DNA of 64,000 bases from Candidatus Bathyarchaeota archaeon (GTDB lineage: Archaea; Thermoproteota; Bathyarchaeia; Bathyarchaeales; Bathycorpusculaceae): the NCBI GenBank assembly GCA_963826715.1, contig CAWGYA010000005.1, positions 125,239 through 189,238 of the forward strand, read 5' to 3'. A program made the position numbers and the translations under genes. This document shows, piece after piece, positions 30,472-59,899 of the stretch. The notes below the pieces were generated by a model. That model was given only the letters and a program-made list of their open reading frames with translations. It was not told the DNA's origin and searched no databases. Each line of letters begins with the position of its first letter. Position 1 is the first letter of the stretch.

Positions 30472-30726
30472 TTGGAGTTGGTTGACCAGCAGGAGTTTTA
30501 CCTTAAGGGTATTTATCCTGTCGACGTTCTTTCTGAGGTGAAAGATGGTTTAGTTGAGGTTCGGGCGAAAACTACTTTTCTGCATACCAGCGCATATTCA
30601 GAGGGAAAGCGCCAGGTTCGAGTCGGCGTAACTGAAAAGCGTTGGGTCAGGCGAGGGGAGGTTTTGAAGGTACCCTTTCGTCATGTTTGGTCGCATCGAC
30701 GTCGTGTAGCTTCTGGGCATGCTTGA
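30472..30726 (+). CDS. viral hypothetical protein
   Basis: GGAGG upstream of a TTG start. Confidence 0.6.
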   Translation: MELVDQQEFYLKGIYPVDVLSEVKDGLVEVRAKTTFLHTSAYSEGKRQVRVGVTEKRWVRRGEVLKVPFRHVWSHRRRVASGHA

Positions 30727-30746
30727 CTATATGTTAACTGTTATAT
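30723..30746 (+). promoter_or_regulatory. viral promoter-like motif, copy 1
   Basis: TTGACTATATGTTAA-ctg-TTATAT; repeated at 36824 and 44669. Confidence 0.65.
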
Positions 30747-30781
30747 TGGCAACTCTAAAGAAGGGATTGTTTGATGCTGCA

Positions 30782-31060: not shown

Positions 31061-31627
31061 TTGGAAGCTAAGACGGCTTTGCGTGTACCTGACTTCATGA
31101 AGCCTATTCTTGAAGACATTAGGCTTTTGCAATCAGACGGAAACAACCCAAACCGGATGACAAACAAGCAAAAAGAGGAACTATGGAAAAGCCTAAAAGA
31201 GTTCGGCTGGACTGACCCCATCCTAACAAACCAAGAGGGCGTTTTCACTGATGGGGAACAACGGGTTAGCGTCTGCATTGCCCATGGAGAATTTTATGCG
31301 CCAGTATATCGTATGAATGACCTCTCTGAGGTACAGCGACGCCGACTCAGATTGATCGCCAACGAATTGAAGGGCAAGCACAACAAAGAACTAGAAGAAG
31401 AGGAATGGCAGCGCATTATCGAGTTAGGACAACGCGAAGAGCTACAATGTTTTTTGGATTCGATTGGGGAAAAGCTGCCTGAAACATTAAGGGATGAACA
31501 CGAAAAAGTTTCCATTATCCCTGAAACTTACGAGTTAATTGTGGAATGCAAAGATGAAGCCGACCAGAAAACCAAGTTAGAGGAGCTACAGGCTAAAAGT
31601 TGGAAGGTTCGAGTTCTAAATCTTTAG
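31061..31627 (+). CDS. ParB/Srx N-terminal domain protein
   Basis: NNPNRM...SLKEFGWTDPIL...DGEQR. Confidence 0.85.
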   Translation: MEAKTALRVPDFMKPILEDIRLLQSDGNNPNRMTNKQKEELWKSLKEFGWTDPILTNQEGVFTDGEQRVSVCIAHGEFYAPVYRMNDLSEVQRRRLRLIANELKGKHNKELEEEEWQRIIELGQREELQCFLDSIGEKLPETLRDEHEKVSIIPETYELIVECKDEADQKTKLEELQAKSWKVRVLNL

Positions 31628-31638
31628 GAGGCTTCAAA

Positions 31639-32388
31639 GTGGATTTTGATTTAACTCACCGGTGGCAAGCTGGCAATTCATTCCGTGAAGAAGCCGTTAA
31701 AGGCACCTATGACCTCAGGGACGTCAAGTTGGAGAAGCATATCTGCGGAAGCCTTCCAATTGAGGGCTTGAATTGGCAGATCGGCGTTATAGTCGGGTCC
31801 AGCGGCAGCGGAAAAACCAGCATAGCCCGCCATCAGTGGCCTGAGGCTTACTTTGCAGATTTAGGGGAGCGCTATAAGCAACCTTGTTTTCTCAACGATT
31901 TCCCATCTGAACTAAGCATCAAAGACATCGAAACTGCCCTGTGTAGCAGCGGATTTAGCGAGCCGCCGTCTTGGCTAAAAAGCTATTCGGTGTTAAGTCA
32001 GGGTCAGAAGATGCGTGTGGATGTTGCCCATGCGCTTTGTCTTCCCCAAAACTTAGTTGTTTTCGATGAGTTCACAAGCACCGTGGATCGCACTGTAGCT
32101 CAAATCGGCAGCTATGCGATTAGCCGTGCCGTTCGAAAGCATCCTGGTAAACAGTTTATCGCCGTAACCTGCCATTTCGACGTGCTGGATTGGCTTGAGC
32201 CTGACTGGGTCTATGATGTAGACGCTAACGTTTTTTGGGATTACACAGGCACATTGCCGGACCAAAAGACAGCTTTAGGAACCCAAGTTAGGATTGTAAA
32301 AAAAAACGACGTCACCCGCCAATCAACTTATCAGTGCATAGGTGCAACCTTGCCCTGTGGCAGGTGTTTAGGGAACATCACTATCTAA
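31639..32388 (+). CDS. soluble ABC-type ATPase (N-terminal half of a probable ATPase-GNAT fusion)
   Basis: GSSGSGKT, LSQGQ, VVFDEFTS, VTCH; GGAGG SD then GTG at 31639. Confidence 0.88.
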   Translation: MDFDLTHRWQAGNSFREEAVKGTYDLRDVKLEKHICGSLPIEGLNWQIGVIVGSSGSGKTSIARHQWPEAYFADLGERYKQPCFLNDFPSELSIKDIETALCSSGFSEPPSWLKSYSVLSQGQKMRVDVAHALCLPQNLVVFDEFTSTVDRTVAQIGSYAISRAVRKHPGKQFIAVTCHFDVLDWLEPDWVYDVDANVFWDYTGTLPDQKTALGTQVRIVKKNDVTRQSTYQCIGATLPCGRCLGNITI

Positions 32389-32789
32389 ACACTAAGGCTC
32401 TTGGGGCTGGCATACGATGTTATGTCGCCAAATATGGGGATAAACCCATTGCGTTTATTGCAGTTGCAAATGTGCACATGAAGGTACAGTATTATCGGGT
32501 CAGTCGGCTTGTTGTCCTTCCAGATTATCAAGGCATCGGTGTAGGCAAGCGGCTATTGAATTTTATGGCGGATCTCTACACAAGGCAGACTAAGCGTCCT
32601 TTCTATATTGTAACAAGCAATCCTCAACTTGCACGTGGCTTGGCGAATTGGAAGGTTAAGCGGTTTGGGCATGGCAGTTCGGGAAGAAATAACACAAGAA
32701 TAAATCGGGGGTTGGTTAAAGCGAACAGTAGAGGGCGCTTGACATTCACATTAGAGTATGTTCCAAATATGGGAGCGCCTAAACAATGA
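32298..32789 (+). CDS. GNAT acetyltransferase in the -1 frame, reached via an A9C slippery site
   Basis: KRRHPPINLSVHR...WQVFREHHYL...RVSRLVVLPDYQGIGVG. Confidence 0.85.
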   Translation, partial: KKKRRHPPINLSVHRCNLALWQVFREHHYLNTKALGAGIRCYVAKYGDKPIAFIAVANVHMKVQYYRVSRLVVLPDYQGIGVGKRLLNFMADLYTRQTKRPFYIVTSNPQLARGLANWKVKRFGHGSSGRNNTRINRGLVKANSRGRLTFTLEYVPNMGAPKQ

Positions 32790-32813: not shown

Positions 32814-33350
32814 ATGTCCAAAATATGGGGGTACCCCATGGAACCTGAGTTGTTTAAGCGACGTCAAAGAATGCTTAGGCTATTGGCTGTCGGAAACTCG
32901 CTAAGCGCTATTGTCCAGACTCTAAGTGCAGAGTTTCATGTTAGCGAATGGGTAATTTACAAAGACCATAAACGGATGAAAACCTGGGTTCATGCTTTCG
33001 AGCAAGACGAGGTACTGGCATCTATTTTGCGGGCACGGTTGGACTTCTTGAATCGCGAAGCCATGGGTCTTCTAACTGAAGGCGACGACAAGAAGCCGCT
33101 AAGCGTCAAAGATAAGTTTGTGAAAATTGGCGCTCTAAATACTGCTCTCAAAATTACCGTTGAGCAAATTAAGGTCGGGCAGGAACTTGGGCTGATTGAG
33201 AGAAAACCCGAAGTAATTCAATCCGCGGTTAGTTTGGCTATGCCGTTTGAGGCGTCGCCCGAGATTAAGGCTGCCTACATCAAATTCGCTGAATCTCAAA
33301 GGGCTGACAAAGATGCCACAACAAAAGCTGAACCTGACGCCGGGAACTGA
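32814..33350 (+). CDS. terS: probable terminase small subunit
   Basis: N-terminal HTH-like segment; overlaps the TerL start. Confidence 0.65.
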   Translation: MSKIWGYPMEPELFKRRQRMLRLLAVGNSLSAIVQTLSAEFHVSEWVIYKDHKRMKTWVHAFEQDEVLASILRARLDFLNREAMGLLTEGDDKKPLSVKDKFVKIGALNTALKITVEQIKVGQELGLIERKPEVIQSAVSLAMPFEASPEIKAAYIKFAESQRADKDATTKAEPDAGN

Positions 33351-34581
33351 TTTCCTCCGATACTGCCCTCATCCTGCCCAGCTTCCTTTTCACGCAGGCA
33401 AAGGCATCTATAGCCAACGGGCTTGTCTCTGTGGAACGGGTTCGGGAAAGACAAAATGCGGGTTGGCTGAGGATATTCGCTGGGCGCTGGATTATCCTGG
33501 GAGCGTCGGCTTCATTTTTGAGCCATCTTACCCAATGATGAAGCGTATTCTCTTCCCAACATTGGAGAGCAAAGATTTCTTTGGCTGCCGCTATCCTTTT
33601 ACGCAAAATCCCTACGTGGCTGACTTTAACCGTGGGGACATGCGGCTGGATTGGTTTAACGGTTCGCAGTGGTGGTTTGTCTCGCTTGACGATCCAGAAA
33701 AAGCCGAGGGTCCTAACGTTGATTATGCGCATGTCGATGAGGCGCGGCTTGTTCGCCACTTCGACACAGCGTGGCTTACAGTTGTGCGTAGGCTTCGCAA
33801 AAGTGGCCGCTGCATGGTTCCAATTAATCCGGGCATTTGGCTTACGACAACGACCGATTCTCCCGGCAGCCCTTTGTATAATATCACGGAGAACCCTGAG
33901 ACGAATTCGCCTAATATGCGGATTTACCGTTGGAGCATCTTTGAGAACCCAACGTTGCCCAAAGAATTTTTGGCAGAAATTGTACGGACTCACACGGGTG
34001 GCTTAGCTGACCGCTTTATCTATGGCAAATTTGCCACTGTCGCCGCGGGTAGCTTGCCCTTTGACTCTTCAAAGCATATTCGGGAGTTGACTGATAAGGC
34101 GTTGATTAATCGGGTTAGCTTTGGCGTTGACTTCGGTTGGAGTGCACCCAGCGCTATTGTGGTGAACGTTTTTGATCCTGACGGCAGAGCCTACGCAGTG
34201 GATGAATTCTATAAACGTGAAACTACAGATGAAGAGTTAGCGGAGGCAGCCAAAGACTTGCAAGAGACATGGGGTGAGGGAACGTTTTGGTGCGATGCCC
34301 GCTTTCCCCAGTCAATTTTAAAGCTTTGCCGTGCAGGATTAGACGCTAAGCCCTACACTTTCAAACGGGACGATGGGCTGAGGGAACTTGGCAGCCGCCT
34401 GACTCCTGCGAGCGATGGGAAGCCTCGCCAGTTTGTAAGCAAACGCTGTGTCAACCTTATCAGCGAGTTGTTGGAGTATCGGGAAGACATCAAGGAGAAT
34501 GACCATGCGACTGATGCTCTGCGGTATAGTTTGCCGCTGGAGCAAGAAGAGAAGCCGTTTTTGTATGTAGTTAGGCGTTGA
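33313..34581 (+). CDS. terL: terminase large subunit
   Basis: GTGSGKT, AHVDEA, GVDFGWSAP, ENDHATDALRY. Confidence 0.95.
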   Translation: MPQQKLNLTPGTDFLRYCPHPAQLPFHAGKGIYSQRACLCGTGSGKTKCGLAEDIRWALDYPGSVGFIFEPSYPMMKRILFPTLESKDFFGCRYPFTQNPYVADFNRGDMRLDWFNGSQWWFVSLDDPEKAEGPNVDYAHVDEARLVRHFDTAWLTVVRRLRKSGRCMVPINPGIWLTTTTDSPGSPLYNITENPETNSPNMRIYRWSIFENPTLPKEFLAEIVRTHTGGLADRFIYGKFATVAAGSLPFDSSKHIRELTDKALINRVSFGVDFGWSAPSAIVVNVFDPDGRAYAVDEFYKRETTDEELAEAAKDLQETWGEGTFWCDARFPQSILKLCRAGLDAKPYTFKRDDGLRELGSRLTPASDGKPRQFVSKRCVNLISELLEYREDIKENDHATDALRYSLPLEQEEKPFLYVVRR

Positions 34582-34621
34582 CGCCCTCAAATAGCAAGAA
34601 TATAAGCACTTAGCAAGTGAA

Positions 34622-34858
34622 CTATTCTTCTATTTTGAAGAATTCGCCAATTTGAGTGAGATGCAAATTAGCTCTGTCAAGAATAGGTTGTAAGGACTGT
34701 CTTGTACAAGTATCAAAAGAGCCTTTGAGCATTAGAGAGCATACGCCTTTATCATCATTAATAGAGATCGAGTTAAAGTCGATTTTGTATTCGGAAGTAT
34801 TTAGAATTTCTTTGAGAACCACTAACGCCTTATCTCTATTCATAGCAGAGTTCTCCAC
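34622..34858 (-). CDS. small hypothetical cargo protein
   Basis: Co-oriented downstream of the kinase; AT-rich. Confidence 0.55.
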   Translation of the reverse strand: MENSAMNRDKALVVLKEILNTSEYKIDFNSISINDDKGVCSLMLKGSFDTCTRQSLQPILDRANLHLTQIGEFFKIEE

Positions 34859-34947
34859 TAACTTGAGTCACATGATATTGTTTAAAAGGTTTAGGTATTT
34901 GGCAACATAGGGCTTAGTTGATGTGCAAAAATACATCAACAAGGAAG

Positions 34948-36669
34948 TTAATTCTGCGGTAGCTCGATTGTGAACTTTGTGCCCTTGTCTTCTTGGCTTT
35001 CAAAAGTGACGGTTCCACCCATTGCTTCGGTCATACGCTTGACTACTGCTAAGCCGAAGCCTTGCCCCTTTGATTTTGTGGTAAACATTGGCGTAAACAA
35101 TTTAGCTTTCGCCTTCTCTGGTATGCCAACGCCCGTATCTTCCAAAGTTATAATGACATTGTTTTTCTTTTTGTCTTTATAGGCATGTATTGATAGTTTT
35201 CCACCCATGGGCATGGCTTGAATCGCATTATTTACCAAATTAAACAGTATACGATTTAAGAATGAAGAATCAGCTCTGATTCTTCGGACCTCGCTTTCCA
35301 CCTTAACACTTATCTTAACATTCTCTGCCAAAACATTCTTTGACAGCAAATCATCAATTACAAGTTTTGTATCAATATCCTCGAAAGTTGGGGTGAGTGC
35401 TCTGGCAAAGTCTTGCAAATCAGCCACGATCTTGTTAATGTAGTAAACGTTCTTCTCAATTCCCTCCAAACTTTCATGGACATTTTGCTTCGTTTCGCAT
35501 TCGGGCATTGTACTCAGATCAGACTTAAGCAAATATACATCACTGGCAATCGCCTGCAATGGATTACGAATATCATGACCGACCATACCCGCAGTAGCAC
35601 CGATAGCGGCCAAACGCTCAGAATCTTTAAGCTGCTTAGTGCGCTCTTCAACAATCTTCTCTAAATTCGTAGTGTATTTCTGCAATTCTATTTGCGCTTG
35701 CTGTAATACTTCTTCAGCTTTTCTGCGCTCTGTTATATCTTGGACTGTACCAAAACCACCGAGTAATTCGCCTTTTTGGTTGGATTCCAACTCAGCTTTT
35801 TCTCTTACCCATATAACATTTCCATTAACAATAATCCTATGTTCAATATCATAGGGCTTGCCTTTTAGAGCTGCATCCCATTGCTGATTAACATATTCAC
35901 AGTCGTCAGGATGAACCCTTTGCAGGAACTTATCATACGACATTTTAGTGCCTGTTGGAATACCAAAAATGTGGTAAGTCTCATCAGACCAGAATAAATC
36001 TCCTTTAATCGTGACTCTCCAGCTACCAGTTTTAGCTACAGCCTGCGCACGGTTCAAATCATTACGGCTTTCTGTTAGCTGTTCCTTGATTTTAGTCTCC
36101 TCTTCGAGCATTTCTGCCAATTTGAGGTTTGCTAACCCTTTCTTTGATAACATCTTCGTTAGGTCGGTATAAAACGACATCAGGCGCTCTACTTCGGCAC
36201 GCTTCAATCTTGGGACATTTTTGAGGGCGCAAAGATACTCTTTCTTATCAAAGCCGTATTTCTCTGCCTGAGCAAGGAAGCGGTTAATATCCTCTGGCTC
36301 TTCCTCAAAGAAAAATTGCCCTGAGAAAATGTTGCCAACGTGTTTTCCGCCTATAAACAATGGCGTCACTGTATCGATAAGACCGTTTTTACACTTGTAG
36401 ATTCGGTATTCGCCCTCTTTTACTCCCTTTGTTAGTTCAAGGTCGCTTTCTCGGCAGTTGTTGAGTGTTTGAGGGTTTTTGCGATGGAACTTTGCACATA
36501 TATCTTGCCAGCTTGTACCGATTAGTATTTTTCCATCGAGGTCAAGAAGGTAAAAACCTATTCCGGTAATCTTAGTTAAATCTTCCATCATTGCTTGTAG
36601 TGCAGGTAGGTCTATTATCTTGGCGATGTCTTGGGCGTTAACGCCTACGCTGGAAGCTTCCGTAGCCAT
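34948..36669 (-). CDS. PocR-PAS histidine kinase (proviral cargo)
   Basis: WQDICAKFHR...CRESD...YKCKNGL (PocR); WSDETYHIFG, VHPDD (PAS); GHDIRNPL; HATPase boxes. Confidence 0.92.
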   Translation of the reverse strand: MATEASSVGVNAQDIAKIIDLPALQAMMEDLTKITGIGFYLLDLDGKILIGTSWQDICAKFHRKNPQTLNNCRESDLELTKGVKEGEYRIYKCKNGLIDTVTPLFIGGKHVGNIFSGQFFFEEEPEDINRFLAQAEKYGFDKKEYLCALKNVPRLKRAEVERLMSFYTDLTKMLSKKGLANLKLAEMLEEETKIKEQLTESRNDLNRAQAVAKTGSWRVTIKGDLFWSDETYHIFGIPTGTKMSYDKFLQRVHPDDCEYVNQQWDAALKGKPYDIEHRIIVNGNVIWVREKAELESNQKGELLGGFGTVQDITERRKAEEVLQQAQIELQKYTTNLEKIVEERTKQLKDSERLAAIGATAGMVGHDIRNPLQAIASDVYLLKSDLSTMPECETKQNVHESLEGIEKNVYYINKIVADLQDFARALTPTFEDIDTKLVIDDLLSKNVLAENVKISVKVESEVRRIRADSSFLNRILFNLVNNAIQAMPMGGKLSIHAYKDKKKNNVIITLEDTGVGIPEKAKAKLFTPMFTTKSKGQGFGLAVVKRMTEAMGGTVTFESQEDKGTKFTIELPQN

Positions 36670-36823
36670 ACAAGTGACCCTTTAAAAAAAGTACGGTAAC
36701 TTCGTTCATATAAAAACATTTGTTGTAGCAAACTAGCAACCACAAACAACCCCACCAAGCACATGCGTTCCAGAAAAGCTTTCATCAGCCTCCAACTCTG
36801 ATTTCTCGTTTTCAGCTTCAGCG

Positions 36824-36848
36824 TTGACTATATGTTAATTCTTATAAA
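36824..36848 (+). promoter_or_regulatory. viral promoter-like motif, copy 2
   Basis: TTGACTATATGTTAA-ttc-TTATAAA. Confidence 0.65.
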
Positions 36849-36977
36849 CTAACTTTGGTGATAGGGCTATTTTGTGTAGGCAGCTCTGGGGAAAGCGGTA
36901 AGCTTTAACCTCTCCCCGGGGCTGCGGGCTTGCTGTTTTCCCCATGGGTTGACCGAGACTTCAGGTCTGTTGCTAAA

Positions 36978-37838
36978 TTGAGTGAAGGTTCGGGCTGTGG
37001 GAAATGCAAGCGAGTTCATGAGCAGATAGCTCAGATTCTGCCTTTTCGAGTTCTGGAAGCCGCTGAAGGTAAGCCATTGCGGATTGCAGGCGTCGCTATG
37101 ACTGCAGGCATGTCCCGTAATCATAACGTTTACACTTCTGAAGAGTTGGAGGCTTTTGCTCCAAAACTTGTTGGGGCACCCATCTATCTTGAGCATGTCG
37201 CCGTTGAATCAGCCATCGGAAAGGTTACTAACTGCGTTTTTGATGCCCCATCCAAGAGCTTACGGTACGAAGCGGAGATTTACGACGCAGCTATGGCTGA
37301 GAAGATCCGTCAGGGTTTGATTCAGCATGTGAGTGTTGGGGCAGACTACGATGCACTTGATACAGCCAACGTGCCGCATGGGTTGCATAACGCGGAGATG
37401 TCGCTTGTTGCAGTGCCCGGTATTCCTGAAACCAACATCCAGGTTCTAGAAGCTTTACAGAAGGGGGTTAGGGGTTTGGAAGAAAAGGAGATTGAAAAGG
37501 TCGCTGAGAAAGTCGCTGCCAAGATCGGCGAGAAAAATTCTCTTGAAATTGAGGGTCTAAAAACAAAGCTTTTGGAAGCGGAGGGTAAGTTGGTGGCTGC
37601 TGAGGGTAAACTTGCCGAAGCCAACAGGACAGTTGAGCAGTTAAAGCAGCTTGTACCCGGTGTAGACTTGCTGAAGAATCCGCCCAAACTGATGCCTGTT
37701 TCTGAGGCTGTCAATATGGTTAAGGAAGCAATGCCTGCGTCGATGATTCAGCGTTCATGGGGACTTGGCCCTCAACGCATGTGTCAGGACCTGCAGCGTG
37801 TCATCCAGAAACTTGAAACTAGGGCTGGTGGCAAGTAA
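36978..37838 (+). CDS. prohead protease with C-terminal scaffold-like coiled coil (start uncertain, 36930-36978)
   Basis: IAGVAMTAGMSRN, IYLEH, VSVG, EMSLVAVPG; EGKL repeats. Confidence 0.85.
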   Translation: MSEGSGCGKCKRVHEQIAQILPFRVLEAAEGKPLRIAGVAMTAGMSRNHNVYTSEELEAFAPKLVGAPIYLEHVAVESAIGKVTNCVFDAPSKSLRYEAEIYDAAMAEKIRQGLIQHVSVGADYDALDTANVPHGLHNAEMSLVAVPGIPETNIQVLEALQKGVRGLEEKEIEKVAEKVAAKIGEKNSLEIEGLKTKLLEAEGKLVAAEGKLAEANRTVEQLKQLVPGVDLLKNPPKLMPVSEAVNMVKEAMPASMIQRSWGLGPQRMCQDLQRVIQKLETRAGGK

Positions 37839-38050
37839 TGGCTGAGAAATCTGCCGAGGGAAAACTCCACGAAGTCGATGATGTCGAAGCTGATGCGGTT
37901 ATTGAGTTTGCAAGTAGGGCTATTCCTCATAACGAGATGCTTGGTCGTGTTATCCGCAACATGTACAAGCGCATTCAGGAGTTAGAAGCCCAAATTAAGG
38001 ACCTACAAGCGAAGCAAAAAAAGGCCACCGCTAAAGTTGGAGGTCCATAG
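37838..38050 (+). CDS. small coiled-coil viral protein
   Basis: Translationally coupled (TAATG). Confidence 0.65.
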   Translation: MAEKSAEGKLHEVDDVEADAVIEFASRAIPHNEMLGRVIRNMYKRIQELEAQIKDLQAKQKKATAKVGGP

Positions 38051-38128
38051 TTTTGCTCACTTTTGTGGGGCTAGTAGCGCCAGGACGAACTGGTGTGAAC
38101 GCAGAAAGAATAAGGAGATTGATTTTAG

Positions 38129-38554
38129 ATGACTGATTTAACTGGAAAATCTTGGATGGCTGTAGGAGAAACTGACGATCCAAACGCTGTTATAGAATCT
38201 TTTGAAGCAGGTGCAGGCATCACTAAAGGCTCACCGGTTTACTTAAGTGCAGACGATAAGGTTTCCGCCAGCCCAGGCGGAGACAACGCAGTAGGAATTG
38301 CTATGAAAACCGTTTTGACTGGTCAGCGGTGCCCAGTGCTAACCCATGGGAGAGTCAAAGTGACAGCTGGCGGCGCTATAGCAAGAGGTACAGCGGTCTG
38401 CAGTGCTGCTGCTGGCAAAGTGATTCAACTTGTCGATCAAGCTGTTGACGAGGGCGGCGCTGCGAAATACACCATTTTCTTCAACCGCAGACTTGGCTAT
38501 GCACTAGAGACTACTACGCAGGACACCGACCTCCTGTTCATTGAGGTGGGATAA
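38129..38554 (+). CDS. capsid decoration/cement protein (DUF2190-like)
   Basis: AGAGITKGSPV...AVGIA...GRVKVTAGGAIARG; immediately upstream of the MCP. Confidence 0.75.
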   Translation: MTDLTGKSWMAVGETDDPNAVIESFEAGAGITKGSPVYLSADDKVSASPGGDNAVGIAMKTVLTGQRCPVLTHGRVKVTAGGAIARGTAVCSAAAGKVIQLVDQAVDEGGAAKYTIFFNRRLGYALETTTQDTDLLFIEVG

Positions 38555-39507
38555 TGAAGCCCAAACTCTACGAGTCATTGATGCAGAAAGACGCTGGATT
38601 CAAAGAAGTCATGGAAAAACTCAAACTGAAAACCGACCATCCATTCCTGAAACGATATTCCGCTTTGGGAGTGAAGGAAGGCTTCTTCAGCGACATGTCA
38701 GGCGCTCTTGGCAGAATGCATGATACGATGGTTGATGCTGCATGGCCTGAACTGATTGGCCGTAGCATAATCAACGTAATGCCAACCAACGAAGCCATGG
38801 AACGCTTCCCAATCGATGCAGGCGCAACCGCTTACGAATACGCTGAAGGCACCATTACCCGGCTCTCAGGCAAAAAAGCCTCAACTGTTGACATCAACGC
38901 AAACATTCTGGCAGACTCTTCAGACGAGTGGACAAGGGAATACCTTGAAGACGCATCTTGGAACGTCATGGACCGTGCAACACAGAACATCGGCAACGCC
39001 CTAGGAGTCAAAGAGACCGAGAAGATTCTGGCGCTATACACTGCTGTCTTAGCTGCTGACCTGGCTACCGGTGCAGACTTGGCAGGCGGCGGTACTGTGA
39101 TGAGCTGGACAAAGCTGCTTAGCTTGTGGCATGCTGTTAAGTCTGAGAAGCGAAGAGCAACTGTTATCGCCCTAAACGATATGCAGGTTGCACAGCTCCT
39201 CAACGATAGCACCTTCACAAACGCACAGTCTCTACCAGCAGCACAAACCGACCTCGAAGCAGGCGTTGTCAGTGGCGCACTGGGCATGAAGATTGTTTCA
39301 AGCCCACTTGTCACCAACGGTGTTGCATTCGCCATCGATACACGTGTTGCCTCCGCGATGCTTCTACGCCGAGACGTAACTGTCGAGGACTGGGAAGATG
39401 TCAAGAACGGCAAATACGATGTCAGAGCCACAACTCGCTTTGGCTTAGGCGTCCTGGATTCCAAAGGTATTGCAAGAATGACAAACATCAAGACGACAAT
39501 CACTTAA
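38554..39507 (+). CDS. major capsid protein, HK97 fold
   Basis: Position and size; EWTREYLED, GALGMKIVSSPLV, RFGLGVLDSKGIA. Confidence 0.88.
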   Translation: MKPKLYESLMQKDAGFKEVMEKLKLKTDHPFLKRYSALGVKEGFFSDMSGALGRMHDTMVDAAWPELIGRSIINVMPTNEAMERFPIDAGATAYEYAEGTITRLSGKKASTVDINANILADSSDEWTREYLEDASWNVMDRATQNIGNALGVKETEKILALYTAVLAADLATGADLAGGGTVMSWTKLLSLWHAVKSEKRRATVIALNDMQVAQLLNDSTFTNAQSLPAAQTDLEAGVVSGALGMKIVSSPLVTNGVAFAIDTRVASAMLLRRDVTVEDWEDVKNGKYDVRATTRFGLGVLDSKGIARMTNIKTTIT

Positions 39508-39518
39508 ACGGCGTATTG

Positions 39519-39538
39519 CCTGTTTTTCCCTTTTTTTG
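39519..39538 (+). terminator. oligo-T terminator-like tract after the MCP gene
   Basis: TGTTTTTCCCTTTTTTT. Confidence 0.4.
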
Positions 39539-39565
39539 GGTATCAAATCATTGGGGGTCTAAGCA

Positions 39566-40813
39566 TTGAGTAACGTTTACAGAAAGATCCGTGAGGTCCT
39601 CTCCTATGCGCCTGTTTCAGGCGTGGCAAAGCCGAATGGTAGAGTTTTCTTTGATACTTCCTGCATTCCCCTAATTGATGTTATGAAGCTCTATGACCGT
39701 GACCCAACCTGCAAGGCAAGCGTGGATCTGTTGGCTGCTTCTACAGTTGGCATGGGCTTCTACACTACAGTTGACGAAACCTATGATAAAGCGAAGGAAG
39801 CCAAAGCCGCTGTGGATAATTTCTGCGAAGACATCAACTTGGACGGCTTGCTAAACGATATGGCAAAGCCGCTGATTGGCTGCGGGAACGATTTTTGGCT
39901 TAAATTAACTCCTGACAAACTCACCGAAACCTTGCGCATGCCCATAGATGCCGTGCAGCGTATTGGGCTTAGCAGTGTGCCCGACCTAAAGCTTCCTTAC
40001 AAGGTTACAGGTTATCAACTTAGGAGCATCTATCGAGGTAATAGCAACCAAGACGGGGAACTAAAGCCAGAAGCGGTTATTCACTGGCACCTAGACGGCG
40101 ACATTCCCTCTGGCTACGGCGTTGGCTTGCTACAGGTGCTTTTGCACACATTAACCGTTGATTCGGATAAACGCCCGGCTGTTGCTTGGATGAAAGCCAA
40201 AATCGAGCGCATCATGCCAAAGATTTTCGAGAAATACGCGGGACCCGACGTTTTGGCAATGCTGGAGGGCGTCGATGAACAGACGGTGAAGTCTTTTGAG
40301 CAGGCCATCAAGAACCGTGATGAAGAGGGCGCTTGGCTATTCTACAACAAAAAAATCGATTTAAAGCCGGTTACGATTGACCCACGAGCGCAGGGCTTTG
40401 TTTACTACATCGACCATATCATTAACCAGTTCTATTTGGGCTTGGAAACGCCTCTGCCGAGGTTGTTTAGCACTCCAGGCTTTACTGAAGCATCGGCTAG
40501 GGCAGCGTTGGATTTGCAGGATATGCTCATAAAACCCGTCCAACGCTATATCAAACGCCAAGTGGAACGGGAAATCTTCTTACCCATTGTTACTCAAGCT
40601 GGGCTTGACCCTGTTAAGGCTAAGGCGAGGTTGAATTATGGTAGCCCCGAAACGCCAGAGTTGAGTTCAGCCGATCTCATCAAGGCTGCTGAAGCTGGGT
40701 TGATTCGCCAAGAGGAGTTCCGTAAGAACGCCGTGAAATTTGGTTGGGAACTTTGGGAAGAGAAGTCAAACGTGCGACATGATAGCAGTAAACAGCTTGT
40801 CCAAAGAGGATAA
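39566..40813 (+). CDS. portal protein
   Basis: 415 aa; GCGNDF, EAVIHW...GYGVGLL, LGLETP, IKPVQRYIKRQVE; head-module context. Confidence 0.8.
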   Translation: MSNVYRKIREVLSYAPVSGVAKPNGRVFFDTSCIPLIDVMKLYDRDPTCKASVDLLAASTVGMGFYTTVDETYDKAKEAKAAVDNFCEDINLDGLLNDMAKPLIGCGNDFWLKLTPDKLTETLRMPIDAVQRIGLSSVPDLKLPYKVTGYQLRSIYRGNSNQDGELKPEAVIHWHLDGDIPSGYGVGLLQVLLHTLTVDSDKRPAVAWMKAKIERIMPKIFEKYAGPDVLAMLEGVDEQTVKSFEQAIKNRDEEGAWLFYNKKIDLKPVTIDPRAQGFVYYIDHIINQFYLGLETPLPRLFSTPGFTEASARAALDLQDMLIKPVQRYIKRQVEREIFLPIVTQAGLDPVKAKARLNYGSPETPELSSADLIKAAEAGLIRQEEFRKNAVKFGWELWEEKSNVRHDSSKQLVQRG

Positions 40814-40908
40814 AAAACGCTCTCTTTTCGCTCGTTCAAGTAGCGTCTTGCGAATAAACCTGATTTCACGTCGAAACGCTTTTACCTTTAAAAATAGATT
40901 TTATTAAT

Positions 40909-41265
40909 GTGACAAATTCTGACAGTATTATGGTTTGTGTAATCGATAATGTGTTAAGATCCCTTCCTGAAAAGGATCACTTCTATATAGAGCTCCAAAA
41001 ATTGGGGCTTACCCTTGAAGATATACCCGAAAACCTGTACAGTTTCCATGAAGTCCTAAAAAACACGTTTGGAAAACATCATTACTCCGTTGAAAATCAA
41101 ATAATCAAATTTCTGCATGAAAATGTTAAACAGGGAATCTATGAAGAGAAAGACGCCTCTAAGATAGCCATCCAACTAATCGATGTATTTACTAAAGAAC
41201 ACAAAAAAGAGATAGAAGCAACCAAGGATGCGTTGAGTCAAAACACTTACTTGCGAATGCACTAA
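40909..41265 (+). CDS. DUF3227/NitrOD5-like small protein (cargo)
   Basis: IDNVLRSL...EDIPENLYSFHEVLKNTFG...ENQIIKFL pattern; upstream of the kinase. Confidence 0.55.
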   Translation: MTNSDSIMVCVIDNVLRSLPEKDHFYIELQKLGLTLEDIPENLYSFHEVLKNTFGKHHYSVENQIIKFLHENVKQGIYEEKDASKIAIQLIDVFTKEHKKEIEATKDALSQNTYLRMH

Positions 41266-41309
41266 GTTAATAAAAGAAGAATCGCTTTTTTAATTATTAA
41301 TTTGGGTGA

Positions 41310-44300
41310 ATTGTTACGCTAGACAAAACAGAAGCGCCTTCAAAAGAAGTTCTTGACCAAAAGGATGACGAATTCCCAATCGTTGGTATCGGCGCTTCTG
41401 CAGGCGGATTAGAGCCTATTAGGGAACTGCTGGGGCATCTTCCAAGTGATTTAGGTTTATCTTTTGTAATTATTCAACATTTAGCGGCTGGACAAGAAAG
41501 CCTACTCCCCGAGATTCTTGCAAGGTCGACGAAAATGCAAGTTGTTCAAGTTACAGATAACATGAAAGTTCTAGAAAACCACGTCTATGTTATCCCACCC
41601 GGAACAACGATGACCTTAGAAAACGACTACCTAAAGCTTGTGCCAAAAGTCGACTCGCCGAGACCGATTAACGCATTCTTTGCTTCTTTAGCGCTGGAAA
41701 GAAAAACACAGGCAATCGGAATAGTACTTTCTGGGCTAGGTAACGACGGAACTGAAGGATTAAAAGCAATTAAAGCCGAAGGCGGAATAACCTTTGCACA
41801 AGAACCAAAAACCGCTCAATATACAGATATGCCCCGCAACGCCATTGACTCACAAGTCGTAGATTTTATTCTCCAACCTGAGAGAATGGCAAAAGAATTG
41901 TCGATTTTAGCCAAACACCCTAACCTCATTCATGCCAAAGCAAAGGAACTTGGGATTCAACTATCCAAAGAAGAAACTGATCTAAGAAAAATACTCATGA
42001 TAGTTAAAACCGCTTTCGGTGTAGATTTTACCCATTACAAACAAACTACTATTAACCGACGAATAACCCGACGTTTGGTTATCAACAAATCAGAAAACTT
42101 GCACCAATATGGGAATGTTTTGCGTTCTAACAAAAAAGAGCTGCAGGCATTATTTGATGATCTGCTGATAGGTGTTACAAGCTTTTTTAGAGAGCCCAAA
42201 ACGTTTGAAATCCTTAAACAAAAAGTATTCCCCCAGATAGTACAAGACAGATCACCAAGCACTGAAAAGCTGCGTTTTTGGGTTCCAGCATGCTCAACTG
42301 GTGAAGAAGCATATTCTCTTGCAATCGCTCTTCAAGAATTTCTTCAAGATAACGATATAGTCAATATTAGCGTGCAGATATTTGGAACCGATGCAAACGA
42401 AAAAAGCATCGAGAAGGCACGCCAAGGAACTTATCCCAAAGCTATAGAAGAGAACGTTTCTGAAGTTAGACTTAAGCAGTTTTTCACCAAGTTTGATGGA
42501 CGATATCAGATAGCAAAGCCCATACGTGATATGTGTGTTTTTGCAAAACACGACATAACCACTGACCCGCCATTCTCTAATTTGGACCTTATTGTTTGCC
42601 GCAATTTGCTAATCTACTTTGACCCCTACCTCCAAGAAAGAGTCCTGCCTGTGCTACACTACGGGCTAAAACCTGACGGTTTCCTAGTTTTAGGTGAATC
42701 GGAAAGCGTCGGCAAGTTTCAATACCTCTTTGAACCGCTCAGCACTAAAAGCATCATTTTTAAGAAGAAACGAGCCCAGCCACAAGCAGCCATAGAGACC
42801 GGAACTTTTGTACCATATACTGATAAAAAAACCTATAATCCGCCTCAAAAAACAGATACAATGACTTCATTAAAGCAAGAAATCGATAATGAGTTAATCG
42901 AGCAGTATGTTCCTGCAACATTGCTAACTAACAGCAATTTAGATATTCTCTTTTTCCGTGGTCAAGTTAACCCATACCTGATACATGAATCTGGCGCCGC
43001 AAGCTTCAACGTCAATAAAATCGTTAAAAAAGAATTAAGACCACAAGTTCAAATGGCCATTCTTAGAGCAAAAAAAGAAAACAAAGCAGCTACTGAAAGA
43101 GTTACATTCGAAGAAAAAGAAATAAACAGAATAGTTGAAATCCAGGCTAAACCGTTTAACGCGCCAGAGTTCGACGAGACTTTCTTTTTTATAAGCTTTA
43201 AAGAATCATCAGTTCCTGCGCTTAAAACTCCCATCAATGAGGAAGGGTCGAAACCCCTGGGCGGGGATTTACGAGAAAAACAAATTCGTGAGCTTACTGA
43301 AGATTTAATCTCTTCTAAGCAGACCTTACAATCTATTATTGAGTCGCATGAAGCAACAACAGAAGAGTTACGCTCAACAATAGAAGAAGCTCAATCAAGT
43401 AACGAAGCCCTTCAGAGTACTAATGAGGAATTGGAAACAGCTAAAGAGGAGTTGCAATCAAGCAATGAAGAGTTACAAACCCTCAACGAGGAATTAAAAA
43501 ATCGCAACGAATTACTAACAACAACAAACGATGACTTGGCAAATTTGATAAAAAATGTTGATACCACAGTTGTTATTGTAGATAATAGTTTTATAATAAG
43601 GCGGGCAACCGCGACGGCTTGGGGTGTGCTTAACATTCAGCCATCGGATATTGGGCATGCTATTTTTGCAACAAATATTGGAAACTTCATCAAGGACTTA
43701 GAAACCAAGCTAAATAACGTGACTACAAACTTTACGCAGGTAGTGCAAGAAGTAGCAGGGCAAAATGGGTTGTACTATGAGCTTCGAATCCGTCCATATT
43801 TGACTTCTAGCAAAAAAATTGCTGGAGCAGTCTTAACCTTCGTTAATATTACGGAAAGAAGGCTTCTTGAAATACAGCAAAAAGGTCACACTGAGAAGCT
43901 TGAGGCTCACGTTAGAACCCAAGACGCCAAATTGATTGATTCCGAACGCATGGCAGCTATTGGCCAAACCGCTGGAATGGTTGGACATGACCTCCGCAAT
44001 CCTTTGCAAACATTAGTCGGCGAATTATACTTGGCAGAAAAGACTTTAGAGGAATTACCGGATAGTGAGCAAAAAGGCAGCCTACATGAAAGCATAGCAG
44101 CCATTACTGAACAGACCCAATACATGGATAAGATAGTTAGCGATTTACAAACTTTCGTCAAGCCAGTTGAGACACATAAAGAAAAAGTCCTACTAAAGCA
44201 ACTAATCGCAGGCGTTTTAGCTACCATAGACATACCAAATATCATTAAAATTAATGTTGAAGTCAGCGAAGATTTAGTGATCGATGCCGACCCTCAACTA

Positions 44301-44612
44301 CTCAAAAGAGTGCTCATAAATCTTGTAACCAATGCGATTCAAGCTATGCCAAATGGAGGACATATAACCATCGAAGCAGAACGTATCAATAACGGACAAG
44401 TGAAGATTGTTGTTGGGGATACAGGTATAGGCATCGCAGATGAGACTAAACCAAAAATTTTTACGCCACTATTCACAACCAAGTCACGTGGTCAAGGCTT
44501 CGGTTTAGCGGTATGTAAGAGGGTAATTGAAGCCCAAGGCGGGACGATAGAATTTGAGAGCGAAGTCGGCAAAGGAACAAAATTCATAATACAACTGCCA
44601 ATCACCCAATAA
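41310..44612 (+). CDS. CheB-CheR-coiled coil-PAS-histidine kinase fusion (proviral cargo); non-canonical start likely
   Basis: Frame open from 41310 and includes FPIVGIGASAGG upstream of the first ATG (41535); CheR, H-box and ATPase motifs intact. Confidence 0.9.
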   Translation: MVTLDKTEAPSKEVLDQKDDEFPIVGIGASAGGLEPIRELLGHLPSDLGLSFVIIQHLAAGQESLLPEILARSTKMQVVQVTDNMKVLENHVYVIPPGTTMTLENDYLKLVPKVDSPRPINAFFASLALERKTQAIGIVLSGLGNDGTEGLKAIKAEGGITFAQEPKTAQYTDMPRNAIDSQVVDFILQPERMAKELSILAKHPNLIHAKAKELGIQLSKEETDLRKILMIVKTAFGVDFTHYKQTTINRRITRRLVINKSENLHQYGNVLRSNKKELQALFDDLLIGVTSFFREPKTFEILKQKVFPQIVQDRSPSTEKLRFWVPACSTGEEAYSLAIALQEFLQDNDIVNISVQIFGTDANEKSIEKARQGTYPKAIEENVSEVRLKQFFTKFDGRYQIAKPIRDMCVFAKHDITTDPPFSNLDLIVCRNLLIYFDPYLQERVLPVLHYGLKPDGFLVLGESESVGKFQYLFEPLSTKSIIFKKKRAQPQAAIETGTFVPYTDKKTYNPPQKTDTMTSLKQEIDNELIEQYVPATLLTNSNLDILFFRGQVNPYLIHESGAASFNVNKIVKKELRPQVQMAILRAKKENKAATERVTFEEKEINRIVEIQAKPFNAPEFDETFFFISFKESSVPALKTPINEEGSKPLGGDLREKQIRELTEDLISSKQTLQSIIESHEATTEELRSTIEEAQSSNEALQSTNEELETAKEELQSSNEELQTLNEELKNRNELLTTTNDDLANLIKNVDTTVVIVDNSFIIRRATATAWGVLNIQPSDIGHAIFATNIGNFIKDLETKLNNVTTNFTQVVQEVAGQNGLYYELRIRPYLTSSKKIAGAVLTFVNITERRLLEIQQKGHTEKLEAHVRTQDAKLIDSERMAAIGQTAGMVGHDLRNPLQTLVGELYLAEKTLEELPDSEQKGSLHESIAAITEQTQYMDKIVSDLQTFVKPVETHKEKVLLKQLIAGVLATIDIPNIIKINVEVSEDLVIDADPQLLKRVLINLVTNAIQAMPNGGHITIEAERINNGQVKIVVGDTGIGIADETKPKIFTPLFTTKSRGQGFGLAVCKRVIEAQGGTIEFESEVGKGTKFIIQLPITQ

Positions 44613-44668
44613 TTTTGGTTTAGCGTTTAAACGGTTTTATAGTTCTATCGTCAGGGCATCCGTACGTT

Positions 44669-44727: not shown

Positions 44728-45087
44728 TTGGCTTTGGCTGCGGTTACGGTTGAGGACGTTTGGGATACTTTGAATGTTGGCGATTCGGATATGTCTGAGG
44801 CTAAAGTTCTCAAGATGATTAAGCGAGCCGAAGTGACTTTAGCGCTTGAACTCAACGTAGAAATTGACTATGCAAACTGTTCGGATGCCAAAAAGGAAGC
44901 TATAACGGTTTTGGCTGCGATGTATGCGCTGTGCTTCTTGACTGGCGGGTCAACTGTTGGGTTGAACTTTAGCGTAGGCGACCTTAATGCCAGCCAGCCT
45001 TCGAAGCTGCCGAGCATGGATGTGCTGCAAGGCGAATTTTCCCGTCTGCTAGACAAGCTAAAAACGCCCTATATCGGGGTGGCTTAG
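44728..45087 (+). CDS. head-tail adaptor (HK97 gp6/SPP1 gp15-like)
   Basis: VTVEDV..L N-terminus; size; first gene of the neck/tail block. Confidence 0.65.
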   Translation: MALAAVTVEDVWDTLNVGDSDMSEAKVLKMIKRAEVTLALELNVEIDYANCSDAKKEAITVLAAMYALCFLTGGSTVGLNFSVGDLNASQPSKLPSMDVLQGEFSRLLDKLKTPYIGVA

Positions 45088-45089
45088 CC

Positions 45090-46712
45090 ATGGGCACAGT
45101 TCCAAACGCCTATTTTCAGTTTGTAATGCACTACGCGCCCTACTACTACGTTGTTCCCACTAACTTGGCTGCGGATGCGGCTGCCGGGCAGAGAAACGTC
45201 ACTGTTGCGGACGGTTCGAAGTTTCAAGCTAATTTTCCCGTTGAAATCAAGGATTACTCCCATAGCGAATGGAATGAGATTGAGAGCGTTCTTGGCAATG
45301 TTGTAACCCTCAAGAACAATCTGGCCAATAGCTACTTTATTGCAAAGGCTGGATTGATGGAAGGTCCTGACCCCGCGTTTGGTCGTGGCACTTTTGCCGC
45401 TGCTTTCGCCATCGAGTTTCTCTGCGAAGCCTACTCCGCCCCTCAATTCATAAGCCAACAAAGTAGCATACTCGCCAAAATTGTGGAGTTAGCCGACTGG
45501 TTGCTAACCCAGCAATGTACCGATCCAGCGAGGACTGCGTATGGCGGTTTCAAAAGCGGAGAGTCATCGACTGACTATTGGAGTATTGACGCTGGCAGGG
45601 CTATTCCTGCACTGCTGAAGGCTTACGCCGTTACGTCAACGGCTGCATACTTGGCTGCGGCTAAGCTGGCGGGCTACCCTTTTCTCTACAACATGCAGCG
45701 TCTGCCGGTGGTTTTGGGTTTGCATGACTGCTACTATGGCGGCTTTGCTTCATACGTTACCATCGGTGATGGTTGGGAGGCGTCGATGTATGTCGAGAAC
45801 CTCTATTGCCTCATAGGCTTAAAGATGCTCGCCGATACTTACGACACCGCTAACGCCCCAACCTACAACGGGGTGATGAGTGACGCGGTTGGTTTCCTTC
45901 GGGACGGTTTGGAGGGGCTTTGGCTCTATTTCTATCCTTTGCCCTCTGGGGATGGCGCTTGGCACCGGGTAGGCTTGAATAACACTGAGGTTTATGATGA
46001 CCCGATAAGCTTTGCCCTGCTTGGCTTGTACACCTGTGAGGGTTGGACGGCTAGTTGCCAACGCGTCTATAACGGCGTGCAGAGTATCAAGTCAAGTGGT
46101 CAGTATCCCGCCTATGTTCCTGACGTCTGCTGGCCTGGCTACATAGATGTGGTTTCAAGGTTTCCCGCCTGCAGCTACTATGACGGTGTCACGATTGGGA
46201 TTCTTTGGAAAATCCGCAAAGACCGCGACCCTCCGGGCTACAAGTTAGCATATGATATTGCTGAGGAGTACGCCGATGAATTCATGGCTTGGGGTCCGCT
46301 CTTCACGGATTATAGCCCAATTACGCTTGCCAAAGCTATGGCGAATGTAAGCTGGATCGCCCGCATGTTTCTAAATTATAGCGAGCCTGCAACCCAATTT
46401 ATGAGGATTCTTAAGAGTAAGGGTGAAGTGGTTCTGCTTTATCCAGTGCGCCAAGCGGTTGAAACCGTTGATTATGGCGACCCTCTTGAACTGTTAGCCG
46501 TGGTTTCTCAGCTCAAAGCTGAACAGGTCTTCATAGAGCCTGGGTACTACCAAAACGACTATTTGGCGTTCTACACGTTTTTGCCCGTGCGCAGTCACGA
46601 TAAGATAAGACGTCAAGGCGAAGACTATGAGGTGCAGACTGTGTCGCCCTCTACTTTTGGTAATCAGCGGCTCTACTTCAAGAGCATGGCAAGGAGGCTG
46701 CTTACCAGTTGA
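45090..46712 (+). CDS. putative alpha/alpha-barrel domain fused to a C-terminal head-closure-like domain
   Basis: ADWLLTQQ...YGGF, ALLKAY.VT...YL.AA; C-terminal ...DKIRRQGEDYEVQTV; lies between adaptor and terminator. Confidence 0.6.
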   Translation: MGTVPNAYFQFVMHYAPYYYVVPTNLAADAAAGQRNVTVADGSKFQANFPVEIKDYSHSEWNEIESVLGNVVTLKNNLANSYFIAKAGLMEGPDPAFGRGTFAAAFAIEFLCEAYSAPQFISQQSSILAKIVELADWLLTQQCTDPARTAYGGFKSGESSTDYWSIDAGRAIPALLKAYAVTSTAAYLAAAKLAGYPFLYNMQRLPVVLGLHDCYYGGFASYVTIGDGWEASMYVENLYCLIGLKMLADTYDTANAPTYNGVMSDAVGFLRDGLEGLWLYFYPLPSGDGAWHRVGLNNTEVYDDPISFALLGLYTCEGWTASCQRVYNGVQSIKSSGQYPAYVPDVCWPGYIDVVSRFPACSYYDGVTIGILWKIRKDRDPPGYKLAYDIAEEYADEFMAWGPLFTDYSPITLAKAMANVSWIARMFLNYSEPATQFMRILKSKGEVVLLYPVRQAVETVDYGDPLELLAVVSQLKAEQVFIEPGYYQNDYLAFYTFLPVRSHDKIRRQGEDYEVQTVSPSTFGNQRLYFKSMARRLLTS

Positions 46713-47707
46713 GTGAGCTAGAAGACCCCGTAACTACCTTGCTAAGGCTGATTAATAGTCGAATCCGCGTAACCAAAGATAACGGTGATGCTGCTAAGCT
46801 ATTGGCTTCGGAGGCAGCGTTTGACCGTGAACTCCTTCTCAAAGAGTATGACGCCCAAATTGCTCTTCAAGTTGACCCTGTTTTGGGTGTGCAAGACCAG
46901 AAGCTAAACTTGTCGGGCAGCAAGAGGCGTTTGGTGCATTTCTTCAAGTGCACGGTCCACTCCATCGATAAGACTGCTCCCGGTTCTGATTTGGGTCGAG
47001 TGATGCGGAACAAGGTTACTGAGCAGATTAAGGCGATTGTCCGTGAGAACAGGACTTTGCCTTATGAGACGATTTATAATTTTGCTGGGCTCGGCTATCC
47101 ATCGGGTGAACCGCACAAGGCATATGCTGTAGGTGCCGCTTCTGAGTTGGCGCCGTCTAGTGGTTCTTGGGCTGAGCTTTCCGCCGTTGATTATCAGGGC
47201 ATTTGGTACAGTGACAATGTCCGCTACTCCAAAAGCATAGCCGTCAACAATCAGTACGGCTTGATGCTTTTCAGGTTCAAGGTTGGGCCAAGAGAGCAAT
47301 GCGTCAAGTCTTTGGTGCTGAGCTTCGAGGGCTATGGCACTGCGCCCGGTGGCAACGGTGTAACGGTTAAGGTTTGGAATCATGTCGCGGGTGCTTGGCA
47401 GTATGCGCAGTATGGAACCGCAGGCACGGACGAAACCCTAACAATTACGATTTCGGCGAACCTGACGGATTACGTGGACTCGGATGGCTATGTTTGGATG
47501 TTTGCCCGAACCACAAATCCCAGCAATGGCGTAACATCCGCCGTGGTCTACTGTGACTACCTGCAGTTGACCGTTCAGGTTCTCGGAATCACTAACTGCG
47601 ATGTCGTGAGCTACAAGCCCTCAGACATCGTTGAGGTTAAGCCGTTTCTCTTCAAAACAGAGCTCACTTTGAAGGGTTGGGCTTTCGAGGAAATAACTTT
47701 AGGCTAA
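46709..47707 (+). CDS. tail terminator-like protein with an inserted beta-rich domain
   Basis: Position before the tail tube gene; central ~165-aa beta-rich insert. Confidence 0.55.
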   Translation: MSELEDPVTTLLRLINSRIRVTKDNGDAAKLLASEAAFDRELLLKEYDAQIALQVDPVLGVQDQKLNLSGSKRRLVHFFKCTVHSIDKTAPGSDLGRVMRNKVTEQIKAIVRENRTLPYETIYNFAGLGYPSGEPHKAYAVGAASELAPSSGSWAELSAVDYQGIWYSDNVRYSKSIAVNNQYGLMLFRFKVGPREQCVKSLVLSFEGYGTAPGGNGVTVKVWNHVAGAWQYAQYGTAGTDETLTITISANLTDYVDSDGYVWMFARTTNPSNGVTSAVVYCDYLQLTVQVLGITNCDVVSYKPSDIVEVKPFLFKTELTLKGWAFEEITLG

Positions 47708-47713
47708 TGGAGT

Positions 47714-48592: not shown

Positions 48593-48601
48593 GGTGAGAA
48601 A

Positions 48602-55135: not shown

Positions 55136-55265
55136 ACCTCGTCCCCCAGACTATCTCTCTACTGATGGTATGAGCTATTTCTTACTGTTACCTCGCCTTT
55201 CAACTTTTCGACAGAGCCTTTCATGGTCCTGTAATGGCCTTGAATTCGTAACTGAGATTGTTAGG

Positions 55266-59874: not shown

Positions 59875-59899
59875 TCGACGTGGACCGGGGACACTTTTC

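Follow-up and report, generated by a model that had tools for sequence, protein, structure and literature searches.

The stretch analysed here (the window) comprises the terminal 64 kb of contig C5 from the 2.64-Mb genome, labelled G000, of a Candidatus Bathyarchaeota archaeon. It carries an integrated HK97-type tailed provirus on the plus strand (30450-64000), whose left end is approximate and whose right end lies off the contig; about 33.5 kb of it fall within the window. Between its virion genes two sensor histidine kinase genes were identified, K1 (34948-36669, minus strand) and K2 (41310-44612, plus strand), which together occupy 5.0 kb of the provirus, or 5.4 kb if the small open reading frame (ORF) orf118 is counted. 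The two kinases probably represent exchangeable lysogen cargo, drawn from the orphan-kinase family of the genus and held at fixed slots of the provirus, with a proposed benefit for the lysogen. In the following, G014, G015, G022 and G001 denote other genomes that were compared, and L-numbers denote loci holding relatives of the provirus family.

Cargo slot A (34617-36827, minus strand, GC content 0.405) is located between terL (33247-34581, plus strand), which matches the terminase family PHROG 2 (3e-29) and Pfam Terminase_6N/6C, and the prohead protease gene (36930-37838, plus strand; PHROG 1.3e-4). Virion homology ends and resumes at its edges. The slot contains K1 and, downstream of it on the same strand, an ORF of 78 amino acids (34622-34858). 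K1 encodes a soluble PocR-PAS-HisKA-HATPase_c sensor kinase of 573 amino acids, for which Pfam confirmed the domains of the PocR-PAS kinase that an earlier note on this DNA had placed between terL and the protease: PocR (PF10114, 8.1e-51, spanning positions 2-161 of the 162 profile positions), PAS_3 (8.7e-13), HisKA (6.4e-7), and HATPase_c (2.9e-27). The transmitter of K1 is nearest to the CheB-CheR kinases of another species (70-72% identity), the best match in its own host reaching 64%. Its PocR-PAS part shows at most 57% identity to anything in 60 relatives.

Cargo slot B (40780-44666, plus strand, GC content 0.397) follows the portal gene (39566-40813, plus strand) and precedes an ORF named adaptor by its position only (44728-45087, plus strand). 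The portal match to Phage_portal (0.0031) lies below the Pfam cut-off, and the gene is 92% identical and syntenic in relatives. Here, virion homology is likewise lost and regained at the edges, and the slot holds orf118 and K2. The frame of K2, the CheB-CheR-PAS kinase announced in the earlier note, is open from stop to stop over 1100 amino acids and encodes CheB_methylest (2e-33), CheR_N (5.4e-11), CheR (2.8e-52), a Glu-rich coiled coil, PAS_10 (6.9e-14), HisKA (1.1e-6), and HATPase_c (4.4e-28). The coiled coil shows Glu-Glu heptads, with EE pairs at residues 685, 692, 706, 713, 720, and 727 and an EA at 699, all in seven-residue spacing. This domain order is that of the CheB/CheR fusion sensor kinases (KEGG K13924); unlike these, K2 is borne by a provirus and has no canonical start ahead of the CheB serine and histidine. 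Literature searches returned no functional study of CheB-CheR fusion kinases.

Both kinases pass the HisKA cut-off of 26.9 bits (K1 29.8, K2 29.1). The H, N, G1, F, and G2 boxes are legible in both translations, the H-box strings being GHDIRNPL and GHDLRNPL, and no membrane segment was seen in either protein, so that both are predicted to be soluble and cytoplasmic. A chromosomal CheB-CheR-PAS kinase gene (16071-19385, minus strand), which is located about 11 kb left of the provirus and belongs to a different clade of the family tree, had been described earlier as a full-length paralogue of K2 and as close to K1 in the H-box region. Both statements hold: K2 and this gene share 525 of 1025 residues (51%) from end to end, the strings quoted for the H-box region are present, and 134 of 237 residues of the K1 transmitter are identical (57%). 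The dimerization and histidine phosphotransfer (DHp) helix of K1 matches nine host orphan kinases almost residue for residue, whereas that of K2 differs.

The product of orf118 (40909-41265, plus strand) is predicted to be a small all-helical protein (model with a predicted local distance difference test score, pLDDT, of 90.9). Its former description as a DUF3227/NitrOD5-like ORF was not borne out. A Pfam search up to E<=1 gave no match, none of its six homologues found carries a Pfam domain, and nothing in PDB matched its model at E<=0.001; the sole hint of NitrOD5 is a weak atlas lead (score 0.83, family on 12% of a cluster). Homologues are located beside a CheB-CheR kinase in G015 and in slot B of L090, and orf118 appears from these neighbourhoods to travel with K2-type kinases.

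Relatives of the capsid protein were detected in 25 of the 61 genomes searched, including 16 of the 36 other genomes of the genus. After addition of IMG/VR and the genome collection, 74 related loci, 67 of them distinct, formed the census set. Comparison by blastn with G014, L090, L042, and L037 breaks at 34577-34616, 36773-36828, 40758-40779, 44667, and 52538. At slot A, the virion DNA of G014, L090, and L037 stops at 34577-34616 and resumes at 36773-36828. At slot B, homology with the same three stops at 40758-40779, at the 3′ end of the portal gene, and resumes at 44667, and the homology with G014 stops again at 52538, before a third island. Between these junctions, nucleotide identity of the virion DNA to the window amounts to 86-90% for G014, 91-93% for L090, 85% for L042, and, in block 1, 91% for L037. 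The kinases are located inside one provirus and not between two fragments, because relatives share the gene order with an empty portal-adaptor gap. The base composition follows the same borders, with GC contents of 0.478, 0.493, and 0.502 for the virion blocks, 0.405, 0.397, and 0.414 for the three cargo islands, and 0.415 for the whole genome.

The contents of the slots change between these relatives. Slot A of G014 holds an ORF of 297 amino acids without family. In slot B, this relative (locus L022; capsid protein 98% identical) carries a CheB-CheR kinase that differs from K2 and lies on the other strand, followed by a gene for a single-domain receiver (REC) of 125 amino acids (L022:18705-19082; PF00072, 8.7e-16), whose best match in G000 is the stand-alone receiver C7:203085 (43%). 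A REC gene also follows the kinase in L113. L090 has CheB-CheR kinases in both slots, and its slot A is 97.3% identical over 3866 nt to that of L037, the two proviruses being otherwise mosaic. Past the slot-A kinase cassette of L090, the terL 3′ end occurs a second time (7289-7429), and this duplication may be the footprint of recombination in a conserved flank. Slot B of L042 contains a GmrSD gene (7.2e-38) together with a deacetylase-like gene, and further slot-B cargo comprises HFX_2341/CARF-like, nSTAND3-like, DUF2971, ChaC-like, ParA-like, and Kelch proteins. Of 39 loci, 17 have a slot B of at most 450 bp and 20 one of more than 1 kb. In their variable content at fixed junctions, which differs among close relatives and deviates in composition, the slots correspond to phage morons or cargo hot spots.

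Additionally, a receiver resembling the host receiver C8:1061162 precedes the protease gene by about 1 kb or less in L031 (13091-13420) and L036 (12631-12960) and by about 4.4 kb in L092 (4005-4334); such a receiver was also found in L088 (7109-7438). In G000, the kinase-receiver pair at C8:1061162 lies 3-8 kb from virion-like matches. At L107 (G014:C1:2445400-2465300), a CheB-CheR kinase was found in a 6-kb patch of low GC content (0.39-0.41) within a region of 0.46-0.50 that has no matches to this provirus family; this kinase may be the cargo of a different element.

The genome of G000 contains 22 HATPase_c matches and 8 REC domains (PF00072), of which 4 are part of hybrid kinases. The host has four stand-alone receivers (C7:203085, C2:268270, C8:833885, and C8:1061162), and only 2 of these adjoin a kinase. 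Orphan kinases are the rule in this host, because 22 HATPase_c matches face 8 REC domains and only 2 kinases are located beside a receiver. All 8 PF00072 matches lie outside the window, in agreement with the earlier observation that it contains no response regulator. The conclusion drawn from it, that the kinases must signal through host receivers, is valid for this window, but not for the family, since a REC gene follows the kinase in slot B of G014 and in L113.

The closest relatives of K2 were found in G015 (89% amino acid identity) and G022 (86%). The G015 orthologue, which belongs to another species, is located between ABC-transporter and thermosome genes and is co-linear with window positions 40714-44630 at 86.5% nucleotide identity. 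It keeps a decayed 3′ end of the portal gene (60 of 83 nt, E 1e-6 in a 60-kb search), and the match stops near the right junction of slot B, at about 44630-44667. The G015 copy is a provirus relic, because the decayed portal end is retained and the match ends near the slot junction. A recent capture of K2 from the chromosome, with the G015 copy as source, was considered and rejected, as the portal remnant gives the direction from virus to chromosome.

Genes or fragments for protease, portal, or adaptor are located within 2 kb of 8 of the 30 CheB-CheR kinase genes sampled. In G000, 5 of the 22 kinase genes fall into the 4.6% of the genome lying within 2 kb of a virion-protein match, these five forming three loci that are not independent. 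Proviral and relic-adjacent copies are scattered among the others in a tree built from 30 N-terminal regions, and the context label changes 12 times compared to a mean of 11.7 for shuffled labels, i.e., no fewer. The idea that 'viral' kinases form a monophyletic clade was dropped on account of this tree. The kinases are members of a large set of orphan cytoplasmic kinases found in the genus and have moved both ways between proviruses and chromosomes, and at least one chromosomal copy is a provirus relic.

CheB-CheR kinases were not found in IMG/VR with a single protein or with an alignment of 11 members (two peptide patterns were used). A tblastn search of a phage collection gave 128 records matching parts of K2 and 114 matching parts of K1, many of them short and unannotated or host-like, and these were not used as evidence. 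A match labelled 'Microcystis phage' was discounted, as it lies among aspS, coaE, and rnhC.

The remaining modules of the provirus are as follows. At the left boundary the GC content climbs from 0.38 to 0.46-0.50, and homology with related proviruses starts at 30493-30774. A conserved trio at this end (31061-32789, plus strand) encodes a ParB-like nuclease (PHROG 2.5e-19), an ABC/SMC-like ATPase (Pfam ABC_tran 3.3e-7), and a GNAT acetyltransferase (1e-9), with 94-95% amino acid identity in the G014 proviruses. It is followed by the terminase subunits (32814-34581, plus strand), the small one being putative by position. Beyond slot A, the head block (36930-40813, plus strand) comprises the prohead protease, a cement protein (Phage_cement_2 3.5e-8), the HK97-type major capsid protein (Phage_capsid 1e-7), and the portal, and is 91-98% identical at the amino acid level in G014. 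The tail block (44728-52556, plus strand), with 92-99% amino acid identity in G014, runs from the adaptor-position ORF through proteins of 540 and 332 amino acids, a tail tube (Phage_tube_2 5.8e-16), and small tail proteins matching PHROG tail families to a tail/baseplate protein of 795 amino acids. Directly past the tail gene, the third low-GC island (52592-57491, minus strand) looks like defence cargo of the provirus: PADLOC matches one of its genes over the full length to the PDC-S28 helicase (8.9e-287) and another to the subtilase IetS (1.1e-66). No IetA-like ATPase was seen beside the subtilase. Finally, a replication/integration module (59792-63958, plus strand) encodes an AEP primase (AEP-TOTE 8.4e-22), a protein of 540 amino acids, and a tyrosine integrase (62702-63958, plus strand; Phage_integrase 2e-19).

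With terL, portal, protease, HK97-fold capsid, tail tube, and integrase occurring together, the block belongs to the HK97-type Caudoviricetes. The att sites are out of view, because the contig, and with it the window, stops 42 bases after the integrase gene. No integrase or primase of the type found in the window was detected within 60 kb around the G014 relative. For the major capsid protein and terL, the ratio of nonsynonymous to synonymous substitution rates (dN/dS) between the window and G014 is about 0.05, and because of this the virus lineage is regarded as under constraint now or recently and not as long dead. Fragments of the provirus family (portal, the 540-amino acid protein, adaptor, GNAT, and terL) are strewn over contigs C2, C4, C5, C7, and C8 of G000, for example at C5:106008-107348 and C7:124203-125594. 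A second fairly complete copy is located at C7:133967-139553, with a near-empty portal-adaptor gap of 318 bp.

Several observations weigh against the reading of K1 and K2 as useful lysogen cargo. Kinases are recurrent but minority cargo across the provirus family: slot B holds a kinase in 2 of 39 loci, and for slot A, taken as the 4 kb upstream of the protease gene, the count is 6 of 51. The earlier note had proposed to see whether relatives repeatedly hold kinases in these two slots, and they do so, close relatives included, in this minority only. By protein search, 20 of the 30 CheB-CheR kinases have no virion remnant within 2 kb, although one of these 20 is the G015 copy, whose relic is visible at the DNA level only, and several others are located at contig ends with one flank unseen. 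Of the five proviral CheB-CheR copies taken from cleaner assemblies, three have a lesion. A +1 frameshift within a run of GGG, possibly an assembly error, interrupts the slot-B kinase of G014, and the G001 copy has no intact transmitter, the major capsid protein gene of its provirus being broken as well. No RNA sequencing run was found to contain the locus (two soil DNA runs contained 5% of its words), and the promoter calls, TATA-like runs upstream of the K1 ATG and of orf118, were both made by eye.

K2 itself adds to these points. Its earliest ATG, GTG, or TTG is located at 41535, which leaves 1025 amino acids, so that no canonical start precedes the CheB residues Ser30 (in GASAGG) and His57. 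The earlier statement that all catalytic motifs look intact stands for the transmitter boxes of both kinases and calls for qualification in the CheB part of K2. At the spot in question, the orthologues begin with ATG (G022) or with TTG (G015), which falls in frame through a one-base difference, whereas the window has neither. The K2 protein may thus lack a functional CheB part; alternatively, the spot holds an assembly error. Furthermore, the last 213 codons of K2 (43850-44612) show a dN of 0.24 and a dS of 0.14 against G015, i.e., a ratio of 1.7, compared to 0.07-0.13 for the remainder of the gene. In these codons, the changes are concentrated near the G1 box and in the segment that links the DHp to the N box.

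A first alternative is that the kinases are neutral passengers, dragged repeatedly into provirus hot spots by recombination among the many kinase genes of the genus with similar transmitters and then left to decay, of use to neither virus nor host. Besides the lesions in proviral copies, the interleaving of these with chromosomal copies in the tree, the host-like GC content of the cargo, and the abundance of recombination partners among the virion fragments throughout the genome are in favor of this explanation. However, K2 and its G015 orthologue differ with a dN/dS of 0.12 over 1079 codons and have retained all catalytic boxes. An alignment of 11 members, some of them proviral, shows no variation in the CheB triad (S30, H57, and D146, in frame in K2, with S30 and H57 preceding 41535), in the CheR motifs, or in the Glu-Glu heptads. 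Moreover, one cassette has been maintained at 97.3% identity in two mosaic proviruses, and some cassettes contain a matching REC gene. Neutral carriage is therefore considered unlikely.

A second explanation, offered as one of two in the earlier note, is that the virus reads host physiology through the kinases in order to set the lysis/lysogeny decision or its induction. K1 and K2 are soluble cytoplasmic sensors with PocR and PAS domains, and some cassettes bring their own receiver, which would suit such a role. Nevertheless, proviruses whose virion DNA agrees at 85-93% carry different cargo, a kinase is absent from most relatives, and neither a DNA-binding output nor a repressor accompanies the kinases. 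In other loci this slot is occupied by GmrSD, STAND-like, and further genes, defence genes among them, the phosphotransfer helix of K1 resembles the orphan kinases of the host itself, and the CheB part of K2 lacks a canonical start. A lysis/lysogeny role of the kinases thus finds no support, and the explanation as a whole is very improbable.

Even less can be said for the kinases as cargo for anti-virus or inter-element conflict. The presence of GmrSD, CARF-like, and STAND-like genes in the same slots of relatives and of PDC-S28 and the IetS-like protease in the third island would fit this explanation, but the PADLOC matches of the kinases are marginal and on the domain level (K1 7.8e-6, to the ATPase domain; K2 3.8e-4), and many family members are located far from defence genes. 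To our knowledge, there is no defence system with this kinase architecture, and we regard a conflict function as scarcely credible. The remaining concern, that contigs with host kinases were misjoined into the provirus, has a negligible probability: CheB-CheR kinases are frequent at the contig ends of draft genomes, where they break assemblies, but independent assemblies break at the same junctions, these hold kinases in the single-contig G014 (two proviruses) and in two other assemblies, and a soil-metagenome contig diverges from the window exactly at 36828. Read mapping yielded short soil contigs of 90-95% identical relatives over the virion genes, none of which spans a junction, so that this provided no assembly test.

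The reading of K1 and K2 as exchangeable lysogen cargo from the orphan-kinase family of the genus is therefore retained as the probable one. Their function, if any, is most likely one for the lysogen. In the proposed mechanism, cassettes would be swapped by recombination within the conserved flanks, and the lysogen would transcribe the kinases from their own promoters, as with phage morons. The kinases would add cytoplasmic inputs, namely ligand sensing by PocR and PAS and, in the case of K2, methylation of its own Glu-Glu heptad helix, although the K2 of this window may be impaired, with no canonical start before the CheB serine and histidine. These inputs would feed a receiver shared with the look-alike orphan kinases of the host, as suggested by the likeness of the K1 DHp helix to those of nine host orphan kinases and by the resemblance of the G014 cargo receiver to C7:203085 (43%). 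The benefit would fall to the lysogen and not to the decision circuit of the virus.

A wider and more tentative proposal concerns the proviruses of the genus as a whole. They could act as shuttle and nursery for kinase cassettes, some including a receiver or a small partner protein, which would be swapped at two junctions of the head module, carried between species, and left behind when a provirus decays. A sizeable share of the orphan kinases might then have been delivered by viruses, and new combinations of sensor and transmitter, such as PocR-PAS on a transmitter of the CheB-CheR type, might arise in transit.

Morons are known from lambda and HK97, and the hot spots of bacterial phages are well known as well, where mostly defence genes, toxins, and metabolic genes are found. 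Antiviral systems have been reported from the hot spots of P2 and P4 phages (PMC9122126) and diversity hot spots have been described in phage genomes (bioRxiv 10.1101/2024.10.15.618418). The slots described here resemble such hot spots in their fixed sites between virion genes, in contents that differ among close relatives and have a foreign base composition, in the occurrence of defence genes among the cargo, and in that cargo may lie on the opposite strand with its own signals. They differ in the archaeal host, in their position inside the head module (terL/protease and portal/adaptor), and in a cargo of large sensor kinases, with a receiver in relatives.

Phaeoviruses also carry histidine kinases, as do their endogenized copies in brown algae (PMC11890097, citing Delaroque et al., 2001). 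These are likewise integrating viruses with several sensor histidine kinase genes of unknown role. However, with hybrid kinases and genomes of hundreds of kb they are giant viruses of eukaryotes, compared to a 34-kb archaeal tailed virus here, whose kinases are clearly exchanged with the family of the host itself. In Bathyarchaeia, integrase-bearing Caudoviricetes proviruses with defence and auxiliary genes have been described (PMC10848311, PMC11705971, PMC11697101), and in these traits the provirus of the window resembles them, by the main texts of the three papers. Those main texts do not mention a sensor or histidine kinase; their supplements may list such genes. Literature searches likewise gave no description of a sensor kinase in an archaeal virus, although supplementary tables may list some.

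Here, an archaeal tailed virus gives its hot spots to large signal-transduction proteins, and the comparison ties a virus family to the spread of a whole kinase family in abundant, uncultured soil archaea. The locus also supplies natural 'swap' variants for probing the CheB-CheR fusion kinases. If the chromosomal copies are largely provirus relics, this would explain how a large set of orphan kinases came to feed few receivers. If the kinases work in lysogens, viruses would alter what these archaea can sense.

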